A stretch of 56,267 nucleotides of DNA, counting the filler, from Sphacelaria rigidula (lineage: Eukaryota): the NCBI GenBank assembly GCA_964200075.2. It is 6 parts of 6 records of this genome, joined end to end, with 100 filler letters (N's around TTAATTAATTAA, not from the genome) between each part and the next. Parts side by side here need not be neighbours in the genome. Positions count along the whole stretch, not along the records: positions 46,974 to 56,267 come from CAXNAA020008824.1; 5 more parts are not named here. One strand, given 5' to 3'. Below, piece after piece: positions 9,296 to 55,971 of the stretch. Numbering within the stretch: the first letter of the stretch is position 1; each line of letters opens with the position of its first letter. The notes under the pieces are model-generated. The model saw only the letters and a program-made list of their open reading frames with translations, was not told the origin of the DNA and ran no database searches. Both the position numbers and the translations under genes were made by a program.

Positions 9296-9395
9296 NNNNN
9301 NNNNNNNNNNNNNNNNNNNNNNNNNNNNNNNNNNNNNNNTTAATTAATTAANNNNNNNNNNNNNNNNNNNNNNNNNNNNNNNNNNNNNNNNNNNN
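9296..9395. other. Artificial contig linker (N44-TTAATTAATTAA-N44)
   Basis: Six-frame-stop 12-mer flanked by 44 N on each side; the same cassette recurs every ~9.4 kb. Confidence 0.97.
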
Positions 9396-9468
9396 CCGGG
9401 AATCGAACCCCCCAACTCAACCATCAGAAGGTTACGAGGTTACCAACTGAGCCACCGGGGCGACCGGT
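9396..9468 (-). mobile_element. tRNA-derived SINE head (family 1), cut by contig start
   Basis: Minus strand has A box TGGCTCAGTTGG and B box GGTTCGATTCC; matches 28017-28085 and 34360-34434. Confidence 0.8.
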
Positions 9469-18690: not shown

Positions 18691-18790
18691 NNNNNNNNNN
18701 NNNNNNNNNNNNNNNNNNNNNNNNNNNNNNNNNNTTAATTAATTAANNNNNNNNNNNNNNNNNNNNNNNNNNNNNNNNNNNNNNNNNNNN
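18691..18790. other. Artificial contig linker
   Basis: Same N44-TTAATTAATTAA-N44 cassette. Confidence 0.97.
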
Positions 18791-39292: not shown

Positions 39293-40579
39293 CTATGCCC
39301 CGCACACATGTTGTTGTTCCGCCATCACAATCCGCCAAGGCCCCGTCCACGTACTCACAAGCTTCGACGTAGTTCCCGAACACCTCACCCTCGCCGCCAG
39401 CACGTGATCGCCCACCACAAAGTTAGTAAGCTTTCCTTTACTAGCCACACGTCTCTGTAGATCGCGATTCTTGTCGACACGCTGCTCCACTTTCTTGTGC
39501 AACTCTTGCTGAGCCTCAACGATTGACGTCACCTGTCGCCTCAAAGCGTCTTCGTCAAGCACATCGACGCTCCATTCGCCCCCAGTTAAAGATGCCAGAG
39601 TAGAGAAACTGGTGCGCGGTGCCCGGCCAAACATAACATGGTATGGCGTGCTAGCATAACGCTCTCGGAAAGCAGTGTTTAATGCCCACTGCACTGCAGG
39701 TACCAAACTCACCCACTCACGAACATCACGCCTTTCCTCTTGCAACATTGCCTTCAAGGTACGAACAATCTCACGCATTATTCGCTCACAAGTGCCATTA
39801 GACCATGGCGAGTTAGCAACCGCGAATCGGCGATCCATCTTCAGCGCCTTCTCAAGCGCTCTCATTACACGATTCTTGAAATGCGATGCCGTATCGCTGA
39901 CCAATACCTCTGGCGACCCCAGCGTTTTGCACCATGTCAACAGATGCTTCACCATCGTGGCCGCCGTACAAGACTCCGCGGGCTCCAACCACACGAAGTT
40001 GGACAAATCGTTCATCATGATTAATATATACTTGAACCCGTCTCCTTCGTTCAAGCCACTAGTTTCCAGGGGGGCACTCTCGCCAACGTAGAGAAAATCA
40101 AAATCCAGCACCTCCCCTGGGCGTGTACCATGCACCGTCTCCCCGAAGGGACGCGGGACCTTCTCCCCTGCCTTGGAATCTAAACAGTGCAGGCACTGCT
40201 TCACAAACTCAGTCACATGGGTCTCCATCCGGAACCAGCAACGATACTCTTGTAAGCACTGTAAACCTGCCACAATCCCTCGGAGACCAGCCCCTTTCAT
40301 GTGAGCGCATACCACCAAGCGTGTTTGTAGTTCTCTCGCTGCTAGTGGGATCCACAATACATCCCTTCCTGCAACATGCACGCGAAACAAACCCTCACCG
40401 TCTTTGAAGACACGACCAACAGCGGCAGTAAACGTCTCGGCCCCATCAACCATACCTCCTAACCCCTCACAGGCTTGCTCTTGGGCTTCACGAACGGCCT
40501 CTTTCGACGGTAGCGTCTCATCAGGCTCTCCACTTGCAAAAACAGCGATGACTCTCACGGATACCGCCGGAACGTTCAC
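39293..40579 (-). pseudogene. Gypsy integrase (zinc-binding region plus DDE core)
   Basis: CAH...VKQCLHC; LDFDFL, VSDTASHF, SNGTCER. Confidence 0.92.
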
Positions 40580-41922
40580 CCACCGGGACAGTAGATCTCA
40601 CTAGCAGTTACGCTCACCAGAAATATACCTGATTGAATAATCATACTACCCGAGTACAGCCTTCCTTGTTCAGAGCGCTGGGCGGCAGTTTTCGCCAGTG
40701 TGGTCACGCATGCTTCGGGATCAAAAATATAAGCGAGATTGCGATGGTCCGTAAATATGGTCACTCCTCCCCACAAAAGGTACTCCAACCGACGAAACAT
40801 ACTCACGATGGCATATCCTTCCTTATCCAACGTGGCCCACCGCAACTGCGCTCCTCGAAACGTCCCACTAAGAAACCCTAGGGGCTCATGACTCATGTCC
40901 TCCACCACTGTATCGCGGTTCAATTCAGCTCCCGGTACCTGGGTCACGAAACTACCCCAATGAAGATCCGACGCGTCTGGAAACATCATCACCTCATAGC
41001 CCTCCTTGCGATATGACAGAGCAACAGCATTTGCCACCAAATCTTGCGCCGCTGTCCAAGCTTGCGCACGCTCAAACGTCCACGCCGCCTCCTTGATGGT
41101 CCTGTTTGAAGCAACCCGCTTTGTACAACGCACGTTGCCCACCATATGCTCCTCGAGCAAAAGACGAAGTGGCTCCACCACTTCAGCAAGGCGCGAAAGA
41201 GACGTCCGCAGCCAATTCACCGCTTGCAAAAATTGTATCAACTCGCCCGCGTTTCGAGGACGCCTCATATTCGCCAAACCGCTCAGCCGCTCCCTGTCGT
41301 GAGCCACCTGCCCACCCGAAAGACCTTTTCCGCACCACGTAATTTGCGTATCATAAAACATACACTTGTGTGCAGCCGCAAAAAGACCAGCATCCTCGAG
41401 ACGGCTTAAAATCGCATCTAGCGTGCACAGCAAGTCATCTTCATTTGCCCCCCACCACGAGATGTCATCTACCCACACCTTACATGGAAGTCCAGTCAAT
41501 AGCTTCGTCATAGTGCCCTGAAAATACCCCGTAGCGTTGAATACTCCTTGAGGCACGCGCGTAGGCGTGAATAAGCCGTCAGGGGTTGCAATAGTGAAGA
41601 TTTCTTAGGCATCTGCCGCCAACGGCATCTGCCAGTATCCCTGCAGCATGTCTAGCTTTCCAAAACAAGCAGCCCCTAACAAATCCGCCATCTCCGCTTC
41701 TTGGTTTGTCATCACAGTCGGCACTTTCTCAATCTGCTTATTAACGGCACGGTAATCACTCACCAGTCTGAAACCACCCTTTTTAGGCGTTGCAACAGCC
41801 GCGCTCCCCCATACTGCCTGCAAACTGCGATGCACGAGCCCGAGCGCCACCAACGTCGCCATGCAACCATGCCATCTTAACTGGAGAGTATGCTCGCGGC
41901 CTAGCCTTAACCGCCTTAGCAC
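40576..41922 (-). pseudogene. Gypsy reverse transcriptase and RNase H, with an internal stop at 41605-41607
   Basis: FRLVSDYRAVN, KLDMLQGYWQ, PQG..NA, WVDD, FPDASD, TDHRNL. Confidence 0.92.
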
Positions 41923-46873: not shown

Positions 46874-46973
46874 NNNNNNNNNNNNNNNNNNNNNNNNNNN
46901 NNNNNNNNNNNNNNNNNTTAATTAATTAANNNNNNNNNNNNNNNNNNNNNNNNNNNNNNNNNNNNNNNNNNNN
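46874..46973. other. Artificial contig linker
   Basis: Same cassette. Confidence 0.97.
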
Positions 46974-47386
46974 CCCCGTCACGTCCACACCGAGGTGGGC
47001 GACTCCCCTTGCCAGCGCTCTTTCGACTGCCATCACGATCTCTAGTGTTGTCACTTCTCACCGTACCTTTTGAGTTACTCGTCTCCCCCACTCATTTTCA
47101 GAGTGTGTTCACTAGGGTCCCTAGCAGTCGACTCCAAACAGAGCCACCAGGCTATACCCCACCCTTTTTGCTTTTTGGGCCATATTTTTACTGGGGTTTT
47201 TTCTCCTTGGGGTCAATTTTTTACCAGAGGTTTTCTCTCCGCTTTTTTTCTGCAAAGAAAGTGCGTACGACGGGAATCGAACCAGCGACTACCTTTTGTG
47301 ACGGTTCAAGCGACAGCCAACTAGACTACTGACAAGTCAGCGCTGACTTGGTCAGTAGTCTAGTTGGTTGTCTCTTAAACCGTCAC
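46974..47386. mobile_element. Split-tRNA element with internal complementary region, copy 1 (left ~30 bp lost at contig start)
   Basis: Colinear with 50706-51142; terminal hairpin centred on AGC|GCT at 47341/47342; ends in CCGTCAC. Confidence 0.8.
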
Positions 47387-49300: not shown

Positions 49301-50676
49301 GGCGGTCTAGCTATTCATTTTGTGGCATTTTGTGGCTTTTTGTGATTTTTTCGTAATTGGCGATTTTCTTGGGTTATTTTCGCTCGCCACCGCTCATCAC
49401 ATTGGGGATCTGAAGATACTTGTATCCGCTTCACATTCGAAGAAAAAAATATCATATATACTCAGTATTGAGTGACTTACTGGCTGAATGGTCATCGGGG
49501 GTCCTGCTACGTTTCAGCCCAGATTCTCCCTCTTCGGTATTTTCGGTCGATCGAGCCTGTCCCAATCATATTTGTGAAGAATTGTACAGTTTTATTTTTT
49601 GAAATTCTACCCACTCATTGCACTAGAGCCGAAAAACTGTGTTTTACGTTCAATAAAACCCTCCTGATAAACGAGGTATTTTCTCGTATCGCCCAATCAC
49701 ACCAACTAACACTGACTTGGGCACTCTGTTTCGAGGATGATACTGTATATTGTACCACAATCTACCGACGCTAGCAATTTCGAGTTCTATCGAAGGGTAG
49801 TACACGAGGAAAATCTCAAGACACCTCTGAATAGTTAGACCACCCACTACTGTATACTCAATCCTCTCTAAAATCTGCCGTTTTTTCTGAAAATCTGCGA
49901 CATATTTCGGTGTTCCTGCTGTTTTTTTCGCGGCCGTTTTTCTGCGCAAAAAAACGGAATTCTGCGTTTTCTGCGGCCGCAGATGAAGTTATAGCCTATA
50001 TGCGCTTGTGTACAAAGGGCAATTCATTCTCCCAAACAATTGGAGAAAATGTGCTGTGACAACTGCCTGTGTACATTGGTGACAAGCTACGTGCTGGTTC
50101 CCTCTGTGTGGCTGTGCAAAGCGACTTCGCGTTACAACAGCAAGTACCTGCCACCTCTCGAATTGCAGTGGGCAAGGTCACACATGAGCATCGCCTGAGC
50201 GTATGTCGGACGGATCAAGTGCAGAAACCCACGTGTGAAACGCGGTTTTAATCATCGTCGGTGTACCGCACTTCATTGACTAACAATATCAGCAGCCATG
50301 ATGTTTGCAAGAGCAGGTCGAGTAGAGTATACTCAACTGCGGGGTATTTTCAAATACGTACTTGAGGTACTCAAATTAGGGTAGAGCTTCAGGAGTCTGG
50401 GACGTTTTCGTTTGTCTTGAACGCGCTTTGGGGGTGCTGTGGCGAAATCACGCCCTCATGGTTGAGTATATAGTGGATCCTGGATGATGACCAGGGGACA
50501 AGAGCATCCTGTGGATGATGACCTTTGCTGTGTAGCCCAGGCCTGATGGTAGGCTGCAGGTGTTCACTCCGTTAATGATAAGGTGTTGTGAAGGCTGACA
50601 ACTGAGACCTTGAGGCTAGTGGAGCTGGGGAGTCCCTCAACAGCATTAGACGCTGCAGTATTAGCAACCTGCTAGC

Positions 50677-51142
50677 GTCACGGAAGTTAGTCGTGGGGGT
50701 TCGATCCCCGTCGCCTTCACTCCGAAGAGGGCGACTCCCCTTGCCAGCGCTCTATCTACTGCCATCAGGTTATCTAGTATTGTCGCTTGCACCGTATCCT
50801 AGAGTTACTCGTCTCCCCCGCTCATTCCAAGAGTGTGTGCACACGGGCCCTTATCAGTACACTCCAAACATGGCCACCAGGATACCCCACGCTTTTCTCC
50901 AGGCCAATTTTTTACAGAGATTTTCTCTCCTTCGGGCGGATTAGTCATGGAGGTTTTCTCTCCTCTTTTTTCTTCAAAGAAAGTGCGTCCGACGGGAATC
51001 GAACCAGCGACTAACTTTCGTGACGGTTTAGGAGACTACCAACTAGACTACTGAGCAGTCAGCGCTGACTGCTCAGTAGTCTAGTTGGTAGTCTCTTCGC
51101 TGACTGCCCAGTAGTCTAGTTGGTAGTCTCTTAAACCGTTAC
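50677..51142. mobile_element. Split-tRNA element with internal complementary region, copy 2 (complete), nested in the hAT element
   Basis: Left end GTCAC+B box; right end A box+GTTAC; 50990-51063 is the reverse complement of right end joined to left end. Confidence 0.85.
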
Positions 51143-51200
51143 ATGTCTCACCCGAAAAATAACGGTAAAGCGATCTCTAAAACCCTACCTCCCATTTGTG

Positions 51201-51384
51201 TACTTTTAGGCCAACTCTTATGGGAGCGTTTATAATTTCATGTTGCAATCATTTGAAACGACTTTTTTTTCTTTGCGGTAGTTGTGTATTTTGTGCCCGA
51301 TCACCATGATGACAAATAAAAAACAAAAATCTGAAATTGTTGCGAAATAGAATTTCAAACGCTCCCACAAGAGTTGGCCTTAGT
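51201..51384. repeat. Small inverted-repeat element; related arm at ~1495-1522
   Basis: AGGCCAACTCTTATGGGAGCGTTT ... AAACGCTCCCACAAGAGTTGGCCT. Confidence 0.7.
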
Positions 51385-51952
51385 ACGAGTTTCGAAATAC
51401 CCCGAAATTGAGTATACTCTACTCGACCCGCCCTTGGATGTTTGTCGCCACTGCCGCCTGTGTACACCAACAACAATATGTAAACATCGCGGTTGGCAAG
51501 TTGCAGTTTCGATCGAATACTTGGTTTCAGGACTATATACTACGAAGCACAAAGCAAGAATGAGCAAGGGCATTTGCACGAACATGCGCATTCCAGCACT
51601 TGCTCTGTGCCGATGTAATGTGAAATGGATATGTGGCGGCCTTGATTACGCAGCGCTCCTTTTGCGCTGCCGTGGTGGTCGGCATGACGCAAAAGGCGAC
51701 ATGACGGTTCAACACTGATAGCTCCATAATCGTCTTGTGTCTTACGTCGCAGAGGTGAAGTTTGCCGATGACAAATTGCTTTCAGGAGTGGAGAACACAA
51801 CAATGATTCCTTCATGACCACACATCGGGCGAAAGACTGTCCAGACAGGCGTTGTGTTAGGTGCGGGAAGAGAGGACATAGTTTTATTGACTGTCACAGC
51901 AATGTGGAGGACGCGGCGACTGTGGAGGACGCGGCGATTGTGATGGGCGAGT

Positions 51953-53641
51953 ATGGCTATGGCTGTGGTGGACGACGACTCCGTCTGTTCGGATGCTGAT
52001 GTAGAAGCGTTCACCAGCCTTGACATGACGGTGGACGAGGTCAACACAGGCGAGTATGCGTTTGCAACTGGGAAGTGGGATGCAGAGCAGTCAGATGGGG
52101 GCGAACCATGGGTACTTGACACGGCGGCCACTTCGCACTATTCTCCTGATTCAAGTAAGATGACGGACTATAGAAAATGCAGTGGAAGGGTACTACGGTG
52201 TGCGGGCGGTGGTACCTACCCGATCGCGGGAAGAGGAAACTTGGCTCTATCTTTACGATCTGACGGACGCGATATAGTCTTGTACTTGAAAAATGTAGAC
52301 CACGCACCTTGGGTCCGTCACCATCTGTTGTCACTGACCAGGATGTCCAACGCGGGTCACACCTACATTGGGTCTAGTAACGGCTTCCGGGTTGAGTTAA
52401 AGTCAGGCAATACCCTGAAAACCCCCGGTCAGCACAGGCAGTTGATAATGTACGCCCAACGCATTTATCCACAAGATCATGACAAGCATGCGACAGCATG
52501 CGCTGTGATTGCCCCGGGGAAACTCCCCAACCCCGAAGTTAAAGACATAAATGATTTCCATTGCAAACACGCGCATGTTCACGAGGACCTGCTCCGGCGG
52601 ACTGCAAAGCAGCTCGGAGCGGAGCTGCGCGGCGAGTTGAGACCGTGCCGGGGATGCTCGGAAGGAAAGGGACTTCGGCAGCCCATCCCAAGATCGACCC
52701 ATACACGAGCAGTTGAGCCAGCTTCCAGAGTGTTTGTTGATCTCACAGGCCCAAAACCACTTAGATCTCGGGGAGGAAAGTCGTACATGATGATAGTACG
52801 CGATGATTGCTCGCGGCACACTAGACTGTTTTTTCTGCGCACAAAGGACGAGTCCGTACAGTACTTCAGTGAATACATCGCAGAAATTCACCGGCGAAAA
52901 ATCGAGAAGGTTCGCAGTGATGGTGGAGGTGAATTTTCGGAGGGGGCGTTCGAGGAGCTATGTGATAGAGAGAAAATAAAACAAGAGAAAACAACTGCTG
53001 GCTCCCAACAGTTCAACGACGTAGCAGAGCGTGCAATTGGCATCATAGAGTCGGCCGGCCTTGCAGCCAAAATTCAGGCATCGGAGATGTACCCGAACCA
53101 GAACATCCCAACTAGCAAGAATCTGTGGGCGGAACAGGCTAACTGGGCATGCCATGCTTTGAACTGTACTGCGACCTCGGCTGACCCGGGAAAAAAGACG
53201 CCACACGAAGTGTGGCACAGAGTACCACCGGAAAACAACCTCCTTCCTTTTCTAAAGCCTGGATTTTGTAGGGTTCAGAGGACAGACAAAATTCAACGAA
53301 TAGCTCAGAGGTGCTGGTACCTTGGCCCAAACCCAGGATACCCGCGCGATGCTATGAGAGTGATCACGGAAACAGGACAAACTATTACGACCAGGCACGT
53401 AACATGGGCATATGTCCCCCCTACTCCTTTCCCTGCCCCACAGCAAGCGATCCCGACGCCCGACGAAGCGAGGGATGACAAAATCAAGGGAGGGACGGCC
53501 GGCAGCGAGTCCGCGGAACATCAAACTCCGGCGGCGCGTGCTCCACCCCGCGGTTCACGTCACGTGTCATTTTTGCTTCCCAACCCAGAGCTGGACGCAA
53601 AAGCAGCACAACGGACCCCTGCTATTGGCGGGGGGGGGTGA
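51953..53641 (+). pseudogene. Copia protease, GAG-pre-integrase and integrase
   Basis: WVLDTAATSH; FHCKHAH...CRGC; VFVDLTGP; VRSDGGGEF; QFNDVAER; frameshift at the G-run near 53630. Confidence 0.92.
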
Positions 53642-53741
53642 GATGACCTCGCCGCTTCCTTGCAGAAGCAGGGGGGGGCGCGGGATTCTACGCAACCCTG
53701 TCCGGCATCTCATTGATGACGGGGGATCAGCGCCCTCCACA

Positions 53742-53940
53742 TCGCCACCGACAGCCACGTCGCCGCCGACAGCAACACCGCCGCCGACAGCTACATCGCC
53801 GCCGACAGCAGCACCGCCGCCGACAGCTACATTGCCGCCGACAGCAACACCGCCGCCGACAGCTACATCGCCGCCGACAGCAACATCGCCGCCGCAAACG
53901 CCGACAGAAACAACGCCGACAGCAACAACACCGACAACCG
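53742..53940 (+). repeat. 18-bp in-frame minisatellite (PPTATS-like) in the Copia IN-RT linker
   Basis: CGCCGCCGACAGC(A/T)ACA(T/C) tandem units. Confidence 0.9.
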
Positions 53941-54449
53941 TAGACACCCCCGAGCGCAACGACGGGGGGGGGCGGTGGAGCTCCCGAAATCCCAAGGACG
54001 GAGCTACGCCGTCTTGCACTCGACGATGAATTGTCTCTGCCTCCACAAATGGCAGGTCGCACGCGCAGTGCGACGAGAGCGGCAGCCGACCGGAACGAGC
54101 TAGCATCGGCGGCAGAGGAACTGGAGAAAACGCTGGCGTGGGAAAGAAACGAAATTTTCTCCCGCGCGATGGCGAGGGTTCAGGCGAGGGCTCAAGCTGA
54201 AACTGTACTGTATGGAATGGCGGAGGACAATTACGGGGTGACGGAGCTGATCACTGCAGCAGCCGGACCAGAGGTAGGAGGCAGCGCGACCATGCTGATC
54301 GAGGAAACTTTTGCGGAGCAGGAGTATTCTTGTTTCTCGGCAGAAAACGGGAGAAAGGCAAAGCCCAGTTTTGGTTTGCATTCCCCAATCGGTCTGCACG
54401 TGAGAGATGTGGAAACTCCCCCCGTAACAGTAGAAGATATAGAAAAGTC

Positions 54450-55971
54450 GAAATACCAGAAAATATGGTTGAGTGCCATGCGTGCAGAACTGAATGGACA
54501 TAAACGCAGATACATTCTCAACAGGAGAAATTCCTAAAGGAGTAAACATAATCACAGCCAAATGGGTGTCACTTGGAAAACCGACGCTAATGGTACTATA
54601 ACTAAAGCGAAGGCTAGATTAGTGGCGCGTGGGTTTGGCCAGAGATACGCGGTGGATGATTTTGAGACGTTTGCATCCACCCCAGCCATGACATCAATAA
54701 AACTGGCCATGGCCGTGGCAGTACAGAAGGGATGGCCACTGTGTCACTTCGACGTTAACCAGGCTTTAGTACGAGCCAAAATGGACACGAATGTGTTCAT
54801 GAAGCTCCCAGAAGGGTGTGGCCCACTAACAGATAGCACGGTTAGGCTAGAAAAATCTATATACGGCGTCAAACAAGCAGGGAGACAATGGTACCTCCTC
54901 CTGAACAAAACACTGATGGAGGATGGAGGAATGTCGCAAAGTAAGGCTAACCCGTGTGTATACAAACTGGAGGAAGGGGGAGGAGTGTGTGCCATACTTG
55001 TTGTGCATGTGGACGACATTGTAATCGGGGGAGAAACGAAAAGAGTGGAGAGGGTATGTAATATCCTAAATAACAGGTTCCTAACGAACAACTTAGTTGA
55101 AGTTCAGTGGTAAATGGGGTGTGCCATAGAGAGGAATTGGAAAGGAGGTACCATGTACGTGAATCAGACGACCATTCTCGACACCATGCTGAAGCGTTTC
55201 GAGGTTACGGAAATTTCTGATATTCCCTCATCAGTATCTGCAGACTTGGGACCGGTGAAGCAAGGTGACAAGGTTTTTGATAGACTATACCGGAATGCCA
55301 TGGGAGGGTTGATGTGGTCGGCTATGGTAACCAGGCCTGATATTGCAAATGCAGCCCGAGACCTGGCCCGGCAATCACACGACTCATGTGAAAGACACTG
55401 GCGAGGGGTGTTGAAAGTTTTGGCGTACCTCAACACGACCAGAAATTACGGTCTGACTTTTAGTTCAGGGGAAAGTAGGCTCACAGTCTATTGTGACGCT
55501 GACTACGCGAAGAAAGATACAGACCGGCGATCGGTTTCCGGGGTAGCTGTCATGTACGGGGGGATAGCAGTATCAAGTACTAGTCGAACGCAACACTGCT
55601 TTACCCTGTCAACTACCGAAGTCGAGTACGTAGCTATGGCAGAAGGGGCGAAGGAGTGTATGTTTGTCAGGTCGGTACTATCTTTCCTACGAAAAAAGGT
55701 TGTGTTGGGACGACAAGTAGAGTACGACATCGTCCTTTATGAAGACAATGAAGGGGCTAAGGCTCTAGCCGACAACCCTCTCAGCTCAGGTCGTAGTAAG
55801 CACATCGACGTGAGATGGCATTTAATTAGGGACTTGGTGAGGACGGGAGCAGTAAGGATTGTACATGTGGATTCGGAGTGGCAACACGCTGATATCCTTA
55901 CAAAGCCGCTCCCATTCACGCTGTTCAACAGGCACCGTCGCGCCTTGATGAACACTGGGGACGGCGAGTAG
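54450..55971 (+). pseudogene. Copia reverse transcriptase and RNase H (frameshifts, stop at 55111-55113)
   Basis: KAKARLVARG; HFDVNQA; IYGVKQAGRQW; HVDD; TRPDI; YCDADYA; EDNEGA; KHIDVRWH; HADILTK. Confidence 0.93.

Follow-up and report, generated by a model that had tools for sequence, protein, structure and literature searches.

In the genome assembly of Sphacelaria rigidula (Eukaryota, GCA_964200075.2), a window of 56,267 nucleotides (nt), filler included, holds a short element (copy A, 50676-51142) whose two ends are both complementary to a single internal tRNA-like unit. This is a repeated, discrete, non-coding many-copy element with recurrent ends, and the combination of self-complementary ends with an internal tRNA-like unit is real and well above chance. 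It is tentatively read here as a many-copy, short, non-autonomous retroelement that may be transcribed from its internal tRNA-derived unit and may have its ends rebuilt there, as in the retroelement DIRS-1; this reading is favoured, at somewhat below an even chance. An original prediction, made from the sequence alone, had described a hybrid of a short interspersed nuclear element (SINE) and a DIRS element, driven by RNA polymerase III (Pol III) from a promoter split over its ends and moving through a circle. That interpretation was partly right, namely in its DIRS-like end logic, and was off on the strand, on a second copy (copy B) and on the reverse transcriptases (RTs) of the window.

The internal unit of copy A is an internal complementary region (ICR). 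On the plus strand, it consists of L', the complement of the left end (L), directly followed by R', the complement of the right end (R). The right end is 93% complementary to 51020-51064 over 45 nt, and together with the inner arm it forms a perfect 32-nt palindrome without a spacer, centred between 51063 and 51064. The left end pairs with 51008-51025 over 18 nt (94%), and across 37 nt, a 2-nt indel included, the complementarity is approximately 84%. Side by side on the internal unit, the ends overlap by 6 nt. The word CGTYAC occurs at each of them (CGTCAC on the left, CGTTAC on the right) and a single time within the internal unit. When either strand is folded, the two ends come to lie next to each other on this unit (z scores of -10.7 and -12.1), and 0 of 100 shuffled sequences were as stable. 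An A box and a B box at a spacing of 25-45 nt occur twice in the window, once per copy and on the minus strand, and in 0 of 100 shuffles; in an integrated copy, the intact A/B-box unit is internal and minus-strand only. The predicted region complementary to both outer ends, the hairpin between the right end and the internal unit, the complete antisense unit and the 5' half with its A box at the right end were all recovered. The 3' half with its B box at the left end was confirmed as well, with a start one base to the left of the proposed 50677.

The start of the 5' half at the right end can be given as 51098 or 51099. Copy A carries a 35-nt tandem duplication of this half (51063-51097 and 51098-51132), which copy B does not have. 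It is the sole direct repeat, and two direct long terminal repeats (LTRs) with a primer-binding site (PBS) plus a polypurine tract (PPT), the features of miniature terminal-repeat retrotransposons (TRIMs) and of TRIMp3 elements, were not found in the element. No inverted terminal repeats are present between the two ends of copy A, where by eye GTNACGG is the sole shared word. The two terminal halves are separated by approximately 385 nt. The tRNA-like unit is not terminal: in copy A it begins 79 nt from the edge of the element, and in copy B 45 nt. The size of the element is approximately 430-470 bp.

Table 1. Features of the two copies of the element and the linkers of the window.
Feature	Position	Strand	Description
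Copy A, left end (L)	50676-50713	+	3' half of the tRNA-like unit; begins CGTCAC; B box GGTTCGATCCC at 50698-50708; T-arm hairpin
Copy A, body	50714-50986	+	Non-coding; rich in T runs; 76-85% identity to copy B; middle most variable
Copy A, internal complete tRNA-like unit	50987-51063	-	A box 51050-51038 and B box 51005-50995, 33 nt apart
Copy A, first plus-sense copy of the 5' half	51064-51097	+	51064-51095 is an arm of the perfect 32-nt palindrome
Copy A, right end (R)	51098-51142	+	Terminal 5' half, ending CCGTTAC; A box TAGTCTAGTTGGT at 51112-51124
Copy B	46974-47386	+	Body, internal unit 47265-47341 (minus sense), single right end 47342-47386
Linkers between contigs	9296-9395, 18691-18790, 28086-28185, 37480-37579, 46874-46973

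Copy B lies 3.7 kb from copy A in the window, in the same orientation. It begins at the first base of an assembly contig and its left end is absent from the assembly, so the claim that it repeats the layout of copy A holds for its body, internal unit and right end and lapses for the left end, lost at the contig break. Over the three shared parts the copies are approximately 81% identical, and on the right both end at the same letters (47386 in copy B). The best-conserved segment is that of the B box and L' (50976-51025, 94%), above the identity of the body given in Table 1. In the 44-nt hairpin, nine positions vary between the copies, and at three of them both arms took the same new base; by random placement, at least three concerted changes arose in 94 of 100,000 trials. 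The arms match at 41 of 44 positions in each copy. This co-variation indicates that the hairpin arms do not evolve independently. As judged from the two sequences, the three concerted changes suggest templated or selected pairing, in that either the hairpin pairing would be selected or one arm would have been copied from the other. Runs of at least four T are found on the plus strand five times in copy A (50893, 50908, 50921, 50954 and 50966) and ten times in copy B, all of them in the body ahead of the internal unit; on the minus strand, both copies are free of such runs.

Data at the family level were obtained from contigs of four public runs (X1, X2, X5 and X8) mapped on 50300-51500 at a likeness of at least 80%. 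Each listed run holds a share of the locus of at most 0.22, and none of the listed public runs with parts of the locus is an RNA run. By their labels, the runs belong to one organism and to an 'algae metagenome'. In such contigs, the start, end, strand and level of an RNA are unreadable, and a circle is indistinguishable from a tandem copy. In all four runs, this region is repetitive throughout. The internal unit is covered at 51019 by 60 contigs in X2 and 114 in X8, all of them different. Among the contigs listed, all four runs have sequences that read from the body through the internal unit to 6-34 nt beyond the palindrome centre, and the hairpin is therefore a feature of the family. The left end and the body are contiguous in three of the contigs listed. 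One X2 contig covers 50676-50871 and its match stops at 50676, with 18 unlike letters beyond; the same left boundary recurs in X1, X5 and X8, where joints arrive at 50676. Loose contig ends at 50842 and 50950 fall in the variable middle of the body. The right boundary is fixed by two findings, the identical end of copy B and an uninterrupted form of the host repeat in which the tRNA-like element is nested, the latter being present in all four runs (joint from 50386 to 51150).

Contigs that join the right end to the left end, for which a search had been proposed, are present in three of the four runs. The joint from 51097 to 50676 was found once each in X1, X5 and X8, and two more such joints are present in X8. 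The prediction that this joining gives an intact unit was borne out by two junction forms, in which a plus-sense tRNA-like unit without a seam leads into the body. A third form keeps both CGTYAC words, one letter apart. The three 51097-to-50676 contigs have depths of 4.8, 6.5 and 60, compared with 5-6 for the window's own locus (X1 and X5). The junction contigs, at approximately single-locus depth, could be tandem dimers or circles, and, compared with the many solitary copies, these forms are rare, whether as loci or as molecules. In searches with words of the element, a 23-nt word gave 0 matches in metagenome contigs, and a 20-nt word gave 0 in genome contigs and 0 in viral contigs. A 21-nt word was found in six stretches with just 21-29 nt of chance similarity, and the 14-nt word at the palindrome centre was found in 85 stretches of viral contigs, none of which resembled the element by BLAST.

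The element was further compared with known RNA and protein families. ARAGORN called 0 tRNAs at default settings, and relaxed settings gave a partial and odd call that is unconvincing. Rfam gave no tRNA match up to E = 10, and at the gathering threshold it gave 0 matches in the whole window. The matches up to E = 10 consisted only of look-alikes of microRNA (miRNA)-type hairpins and 11-13-nt matches to the T loop of transfer-messenger RNA, which were set aside, as the hairpin and the B box account for them. The internal unit is tRNA-like in its boxes and T arm only. As predicted, the element has no tail and no open reading frame of its own. No A-rich, simple-repeat or LINE-derived tail (LINE, long interspersed nuclear element) is present at either end of copy A. 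Stop-to-stop frames of 76-112 amino acids (aa) overlap the element, the frame differs between the copies, 0 of 5 gave a Pfam match, and no frame is conserved. The terminal inverted repeats (TIRs) of miniature inverted-repeat transposable elements (MITEs) and other TIR transposons are lacking in the element. The flanking duplication is a doubtful one of 5 bp (GTCTG and GTCTC), around a larger block than the element.

In the favoured reading, Pol III would start approximately 13 nt upstream of the minus-strand A box, at the palindrome centre (51063), which is where a tRNA-type promoter is expected to start transcription. It would read leftward across the body and beyond the left end, giving a minus-strand RNA that excludes the right end. 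Runs of at least four T are Pol III terminators. The runs in the body would stop a plus-strand Pol III RNA before it reached the internal unit and the right end, and a minus-strand transcript, which meets no such run, could cross the body and the left end. Reverse transcription would give a plus-sense single-stranded complementary DNA (cDNA) from L to R'. At the 5' end of the RNA, the 3' end of the cDNA would turn back and copy the R' half, by which the right end would be rebuilt. The 5' end of the cDNA (L) would anneal to L', and the synthesis of R would halt where L begins, leaving the ends abutting with the overlap in CGTYAC. The aligned ends could then be ligated, into a circle or a head-to-tail form, or inserted as they stand. 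Turn-back synthesis would explain both the spacer-free perfect palindrome and the 35-nt duplication of copy A, the latter by slippage. Pol III transcription, reverse transcription, turn-back synthesis, the circle and the integrating enzyme are all inferred steps.

Several points weigh against this reading. The pairing of L with L' (approximately 84% over 37 nt, with a 2-nt indel) is worse than that of R with R', which is unlike the fresh templating of both ends. In one X8 junction, the CGTYAC cores of both ends persist, separated by an additional letter. In the host repeat, the inserted block extends over approximately 50400-51144 and includes 276 bp of other repeats to the left of L, and copy A may not be a clean single insertion, as one event or two may have taken place. 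A single complete copy is available, the left end of copy B being unassembled, and the absence of runs of at least four A is weak evidence, being taken from two related copies only. With no tRNA called by ARAGORN or Rfam, promoter activity is assumed from the boxes alone. The search for enzymes and copies covered the 56-kb window, and none of its 37 frames of at least 180 aa encodes a tyrosine recombinase. No transcript, circle or partner enzyme was seen in the window or the public-run contigs.

Regarded as fairly unlikely, the alternative given the most weight is that the minus strand holds a common type of SINE, tRNA-derived and LINE-dependent, whose master copy would carry an inherited foldback. 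The 5' half would have been duplicated in inverted form upstream, the antisense T-arm hairpin would serve as the 3' recognition structure, and the ends would be passed on by transcription and target-primed reverse transcription, with their complementarity idle in the rebuilding of ends. Other plain tRNA-like SINE heads are indeed present in the genome, and the minus strand reads as an intact A/B-box unit followed by an A-rich stretch and the body, without terminators. The possible 5-bp duplication around the inserted block would also fit, and loop-broken tRNA-derived retrocopies are known (PMC5322556). However, a Pol III transcript could not transmit the 45-79 nt on the right-hand side of the palindrome centre, which are upstream of every Pol III start for this unit, yet they are kept in both copies with the same end. 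The co-varying arms, the lack of an A-tail, microsatellite or LINE-like tail, and the right-to-left junction forms also speak against such a SINE. The nested insertion of one SINE in another was rejected, because a plus-sense 3' half upstream of the 5' half is impossible by single nesting. Those same junction forms, seen as right-to-left contigs in three of the four runs, two forms of which give an intact sense unit plus body, are what would be expected of a tandem, satellite-like array of sense tRNA-like unit, body and antisense tRNA-like unit, and the two copies 3.7 kb apart in the same orientation would agree with it. Single units would then be fragments or re-inserted DNA circles, with no RNA step. 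This is considered unlikely, since copy A is exactly one unit with both breaks at the same point of the unit and a 6-nt overlap, copy B ends at the letters of copy A, the junction contigs are at approximately single-locus depth compared with 60-114 contig variants over the internal unit, and the uninterrupted host repeat indicates a discrete insertion. That copies A and B are the LTRs of one element was rejected on their identity of 81%, the lack of TG...CA ends and of a visible PBS, and the other repeat families to which the left flank of copy A belongs.

Circular forms play a part in two further models. In one, distinctly unlikely, the element would represent a new class of Pol III-driven, circle-forming retroelements with 'tRNA halves' as the ends of the unit. 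The tRNA-processing enzymes of the cell would cleave RNA that exceeds one unit or reads through it, at the anticodon-loop region of the tRNA-like unit. Splinted by the antisense internal unit, the half-ends would be joined by tRNA ligase, and the circle would be reverse-transcribed and integrated at the CGTYAC word. Promoter, cutting and joining would thus be borrowed from the tRNA, and a partner would supply the RT and perhaps a recombinase; if true, such an element would stand beside retrozymes and DIRS as their tRNA-based counterpart. The other is the model of the original prediction taken literally, a split plus-strand promoter that would be whole only in the circle, used by Pol III, and integration through a crossover in GT(C/T)AC made by a tyrosine recombinase of the DIRS type. 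The seamless junction forms, the short word that the two ends share with each other and, in one place, with the internal unit, and the ICR-like layout all agree with it. It fits poorly with the T runs of the body (5 in copy A, 10 in copy B), as plus-strand Pol III would meet runs of T4-T6 at 217-295 nt, ahead of the internal unit and the right end. In addition, a simple recombinase crossover does not predict the junction that keeps both cores, no recombinase was found in the window and inverted terminal repeats are lacking, which leaves this model improbable. Least probable, with only a slight chance of being correct, is a non-autonomous DNA element of the Helitron or Crypton type that moves without RNA, in which the right sub-terminal hairpin would be a termination or recognition signal. 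Helitrons have TC...CTRR ends and a sub-terminal hairpin, and form arrays of head-to-tail copies. A strong hairpin just within one end, abutting head-to-tail copies and the lack of coding capacity are shared with the element. Its ends, however, are CGTCAC... and ...CCGTTAC instead of 5' TC and 3' CTRR, an internal copy of both ends has no evident need in such an element, and neither a Rep/helicase nor a recombinase was found in the window.

Among known systems, the element, in the favoured reading as an end-rebuilding retroelement, works most like DIRS-1. According to PMC7192593, retrotransposition of DIRS-1 depends on its ICR of 88 bp (33 + 55), located ahead of the right repeat; a trinucleotide is repeated on either side of DIRS-1, and ICR-based regeneration of ends has been shown experimentally solely for the 4.8-kb DIRS-1 of Dictyostelium. 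The ICR described here is likewise complementary to both ends, in the order L' and R', and lies beside the right end, with approximately 77 nt instead of 88 nt; a short word repeated at both ends and junction forms are possible further likenesses to DIRS. In contrast to DIRS, there are no RT, RNase H and recombinase genes and no inverted terminal repeats, the length is approximately 430-470 bp instead of approximately 5 kb, the ICR is itself a tRNA-like A/B-box unit, and the pairing of L with L' is imperfect. Because inverted terminal repeats are lacking and no coding partner was seen, the element is not filed as a DIRS member. Shared with tRNA-derived SINEs are its small size, its many copies, its lack of coding sequence and the tRNA-like distance between its A and B boxes. 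Unlike them, its promoter unit is not terminal, an inverted copy of 45-79 nt lies upstream, it has no tail, and its 3' end is an antisense copy of the 3' half of the head. The definition of a SINE is missed on three counts, the tail, a detectable tRNA and, less clearly, the position of the head.

Circularly permuted tRNA genes of some algae also have the 3' half upstream of the 5' half, with the break in the anticodon loop, a short linker and a working tRNA. Here, in contrast, approximately 385 nt lie between the halves, there is no cloverleaf, and many dispersed copies are present. The SIRE element of trypanosomes is not known to be tRNA-like or to have an internal complementary region. In SIRE and VIPER, a SINE-like element shares its ends with a tyrosine-recombinase retroelement (PMC7192593 and PMC6681497), and TOC1 of Chlamydomonas is cited as a non-autonomous DIRS element in PMC9940879, so non-autonomous relatives are not new in principle. 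A Pol III promoter in a LINE-independent non-autonomous retroelement has a precedent in Cassandra and in the TRIMp3 elements Helenus and Ajax, which, according to PMC10886601, have two direct LTRs, a PBS, a PPT and target duplications of 4-5 bp, whereas the present element has only inverted copies of its internal unit. Retrozymes, as described in PMC4918200, are small non-autonomous retroelements with circular RNA forms and a head-to-tail arrangement; they are defined by hammerhead ribozymes, and no hammerhead was found here among the 14 Rfam matches up to E = 10 in 50300-51500.

In the excerpts of the literature searched, neither a tRNA-like unit serving as an internal complementary region nor an element that combines a tRNA-derived SINE, a tyrosine recombinase and a circular intermediate was found, and four 15-17-nt words of the element were absent from the literature searched; the family may be catalogued in Repbase, Dfam or SINEBase. 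Non-autonomous DIRS relatives are barely described. If true, the favoured reading would provide a minimal and tractable system for how such elements rebuild their ends, with a Pol III unit as the ICR in 430-470 bp, and, next to the routes of LINE-dependent SINEs and LTR-type TRIMp3, a third one for the spread of tRNA-like sequences. Inverted tRNA-like repeats seeded by elements of this kind break short-read assemblies and can confuse the prediction of tRNA and miRNA genes.

The window consists of six assembly contigs of 9295, 9295, 9295, 9294, 9294 and 9294 nt, joined via N44-TTAATTAATTAA-N44 linkers. As the contigs are separate, neighbours in the window are not necessarily neighbours in the genome. 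Contig ends sit within homopolymers and repeats, and the T arms of tRNA-like sequences hold three of them (minus-strand 9396, plus-strand 28085, and 46974, the start of copy B). A second tRNA-like SINE head, with another sequence, is found at 9396-9465 (minus strand) and 28016-28085 (plus strand), where the contig ends cut it exactly at its B box, GGTTCGATTCC. On its 5' side, this head is flanked by normal unique sequence, and it lacks an inverted partner.

The host repeat around copy A (50308-51436) is a TIR element with 55-nt TIRs (50308-50362 and 51382-51436) that are 85% complementary. To the left of copy A, 50400-50675 consists of one or more abundant repeats, which are shortened on the left, as loose ends at 50407 and 50420 indicate that other copies go on. 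One X8 contig matches this stretch and a further 6 nt of the left end of copy A before it diverges. To the right, the host repeat contains a MITE-like hairpin (51206-51382) with 68-nt arms that are 75% complementary. Forms without this hairpin are present in the runs, with joints from 51205 to 51382 and from 51205 to 51385, and the hairpin gave weak scores, far under the thresholds, against plant miRNA precursor models.

The original prediction had seen no partner RT or recombinase in the window. This holds for a tyrosine recombinase and not for RTs, since genes of the copia and gypsy types are present. A Ty3/gypsy-like pol (39293-41604, minus strand) has rve, RT and RNase H domains, and the open frames beside it, up to 43944, have no Pfam match. 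A search for the dinoflagellate spliced-leader motif gave 0 matches in the window at up to 3 mismatches, a result without firm meaning for lineage. A Ty1/copia-like gag-pol with in-frame stops (51772-55971, plus strand) has Pol_BBD, rve and RVT_2 domains, with the pol extending over 51944-55971; it starts approximately 630-800 bp to the right of the element, to which no link was seen. Its RNase H region matched generic copia clusters only in the ESM Atlas. Within the copia region, tandem repeats of approximately 48 nt are found at 53739-53894, one frame of which encodes Pro/Thr/Ala-rich repeats.

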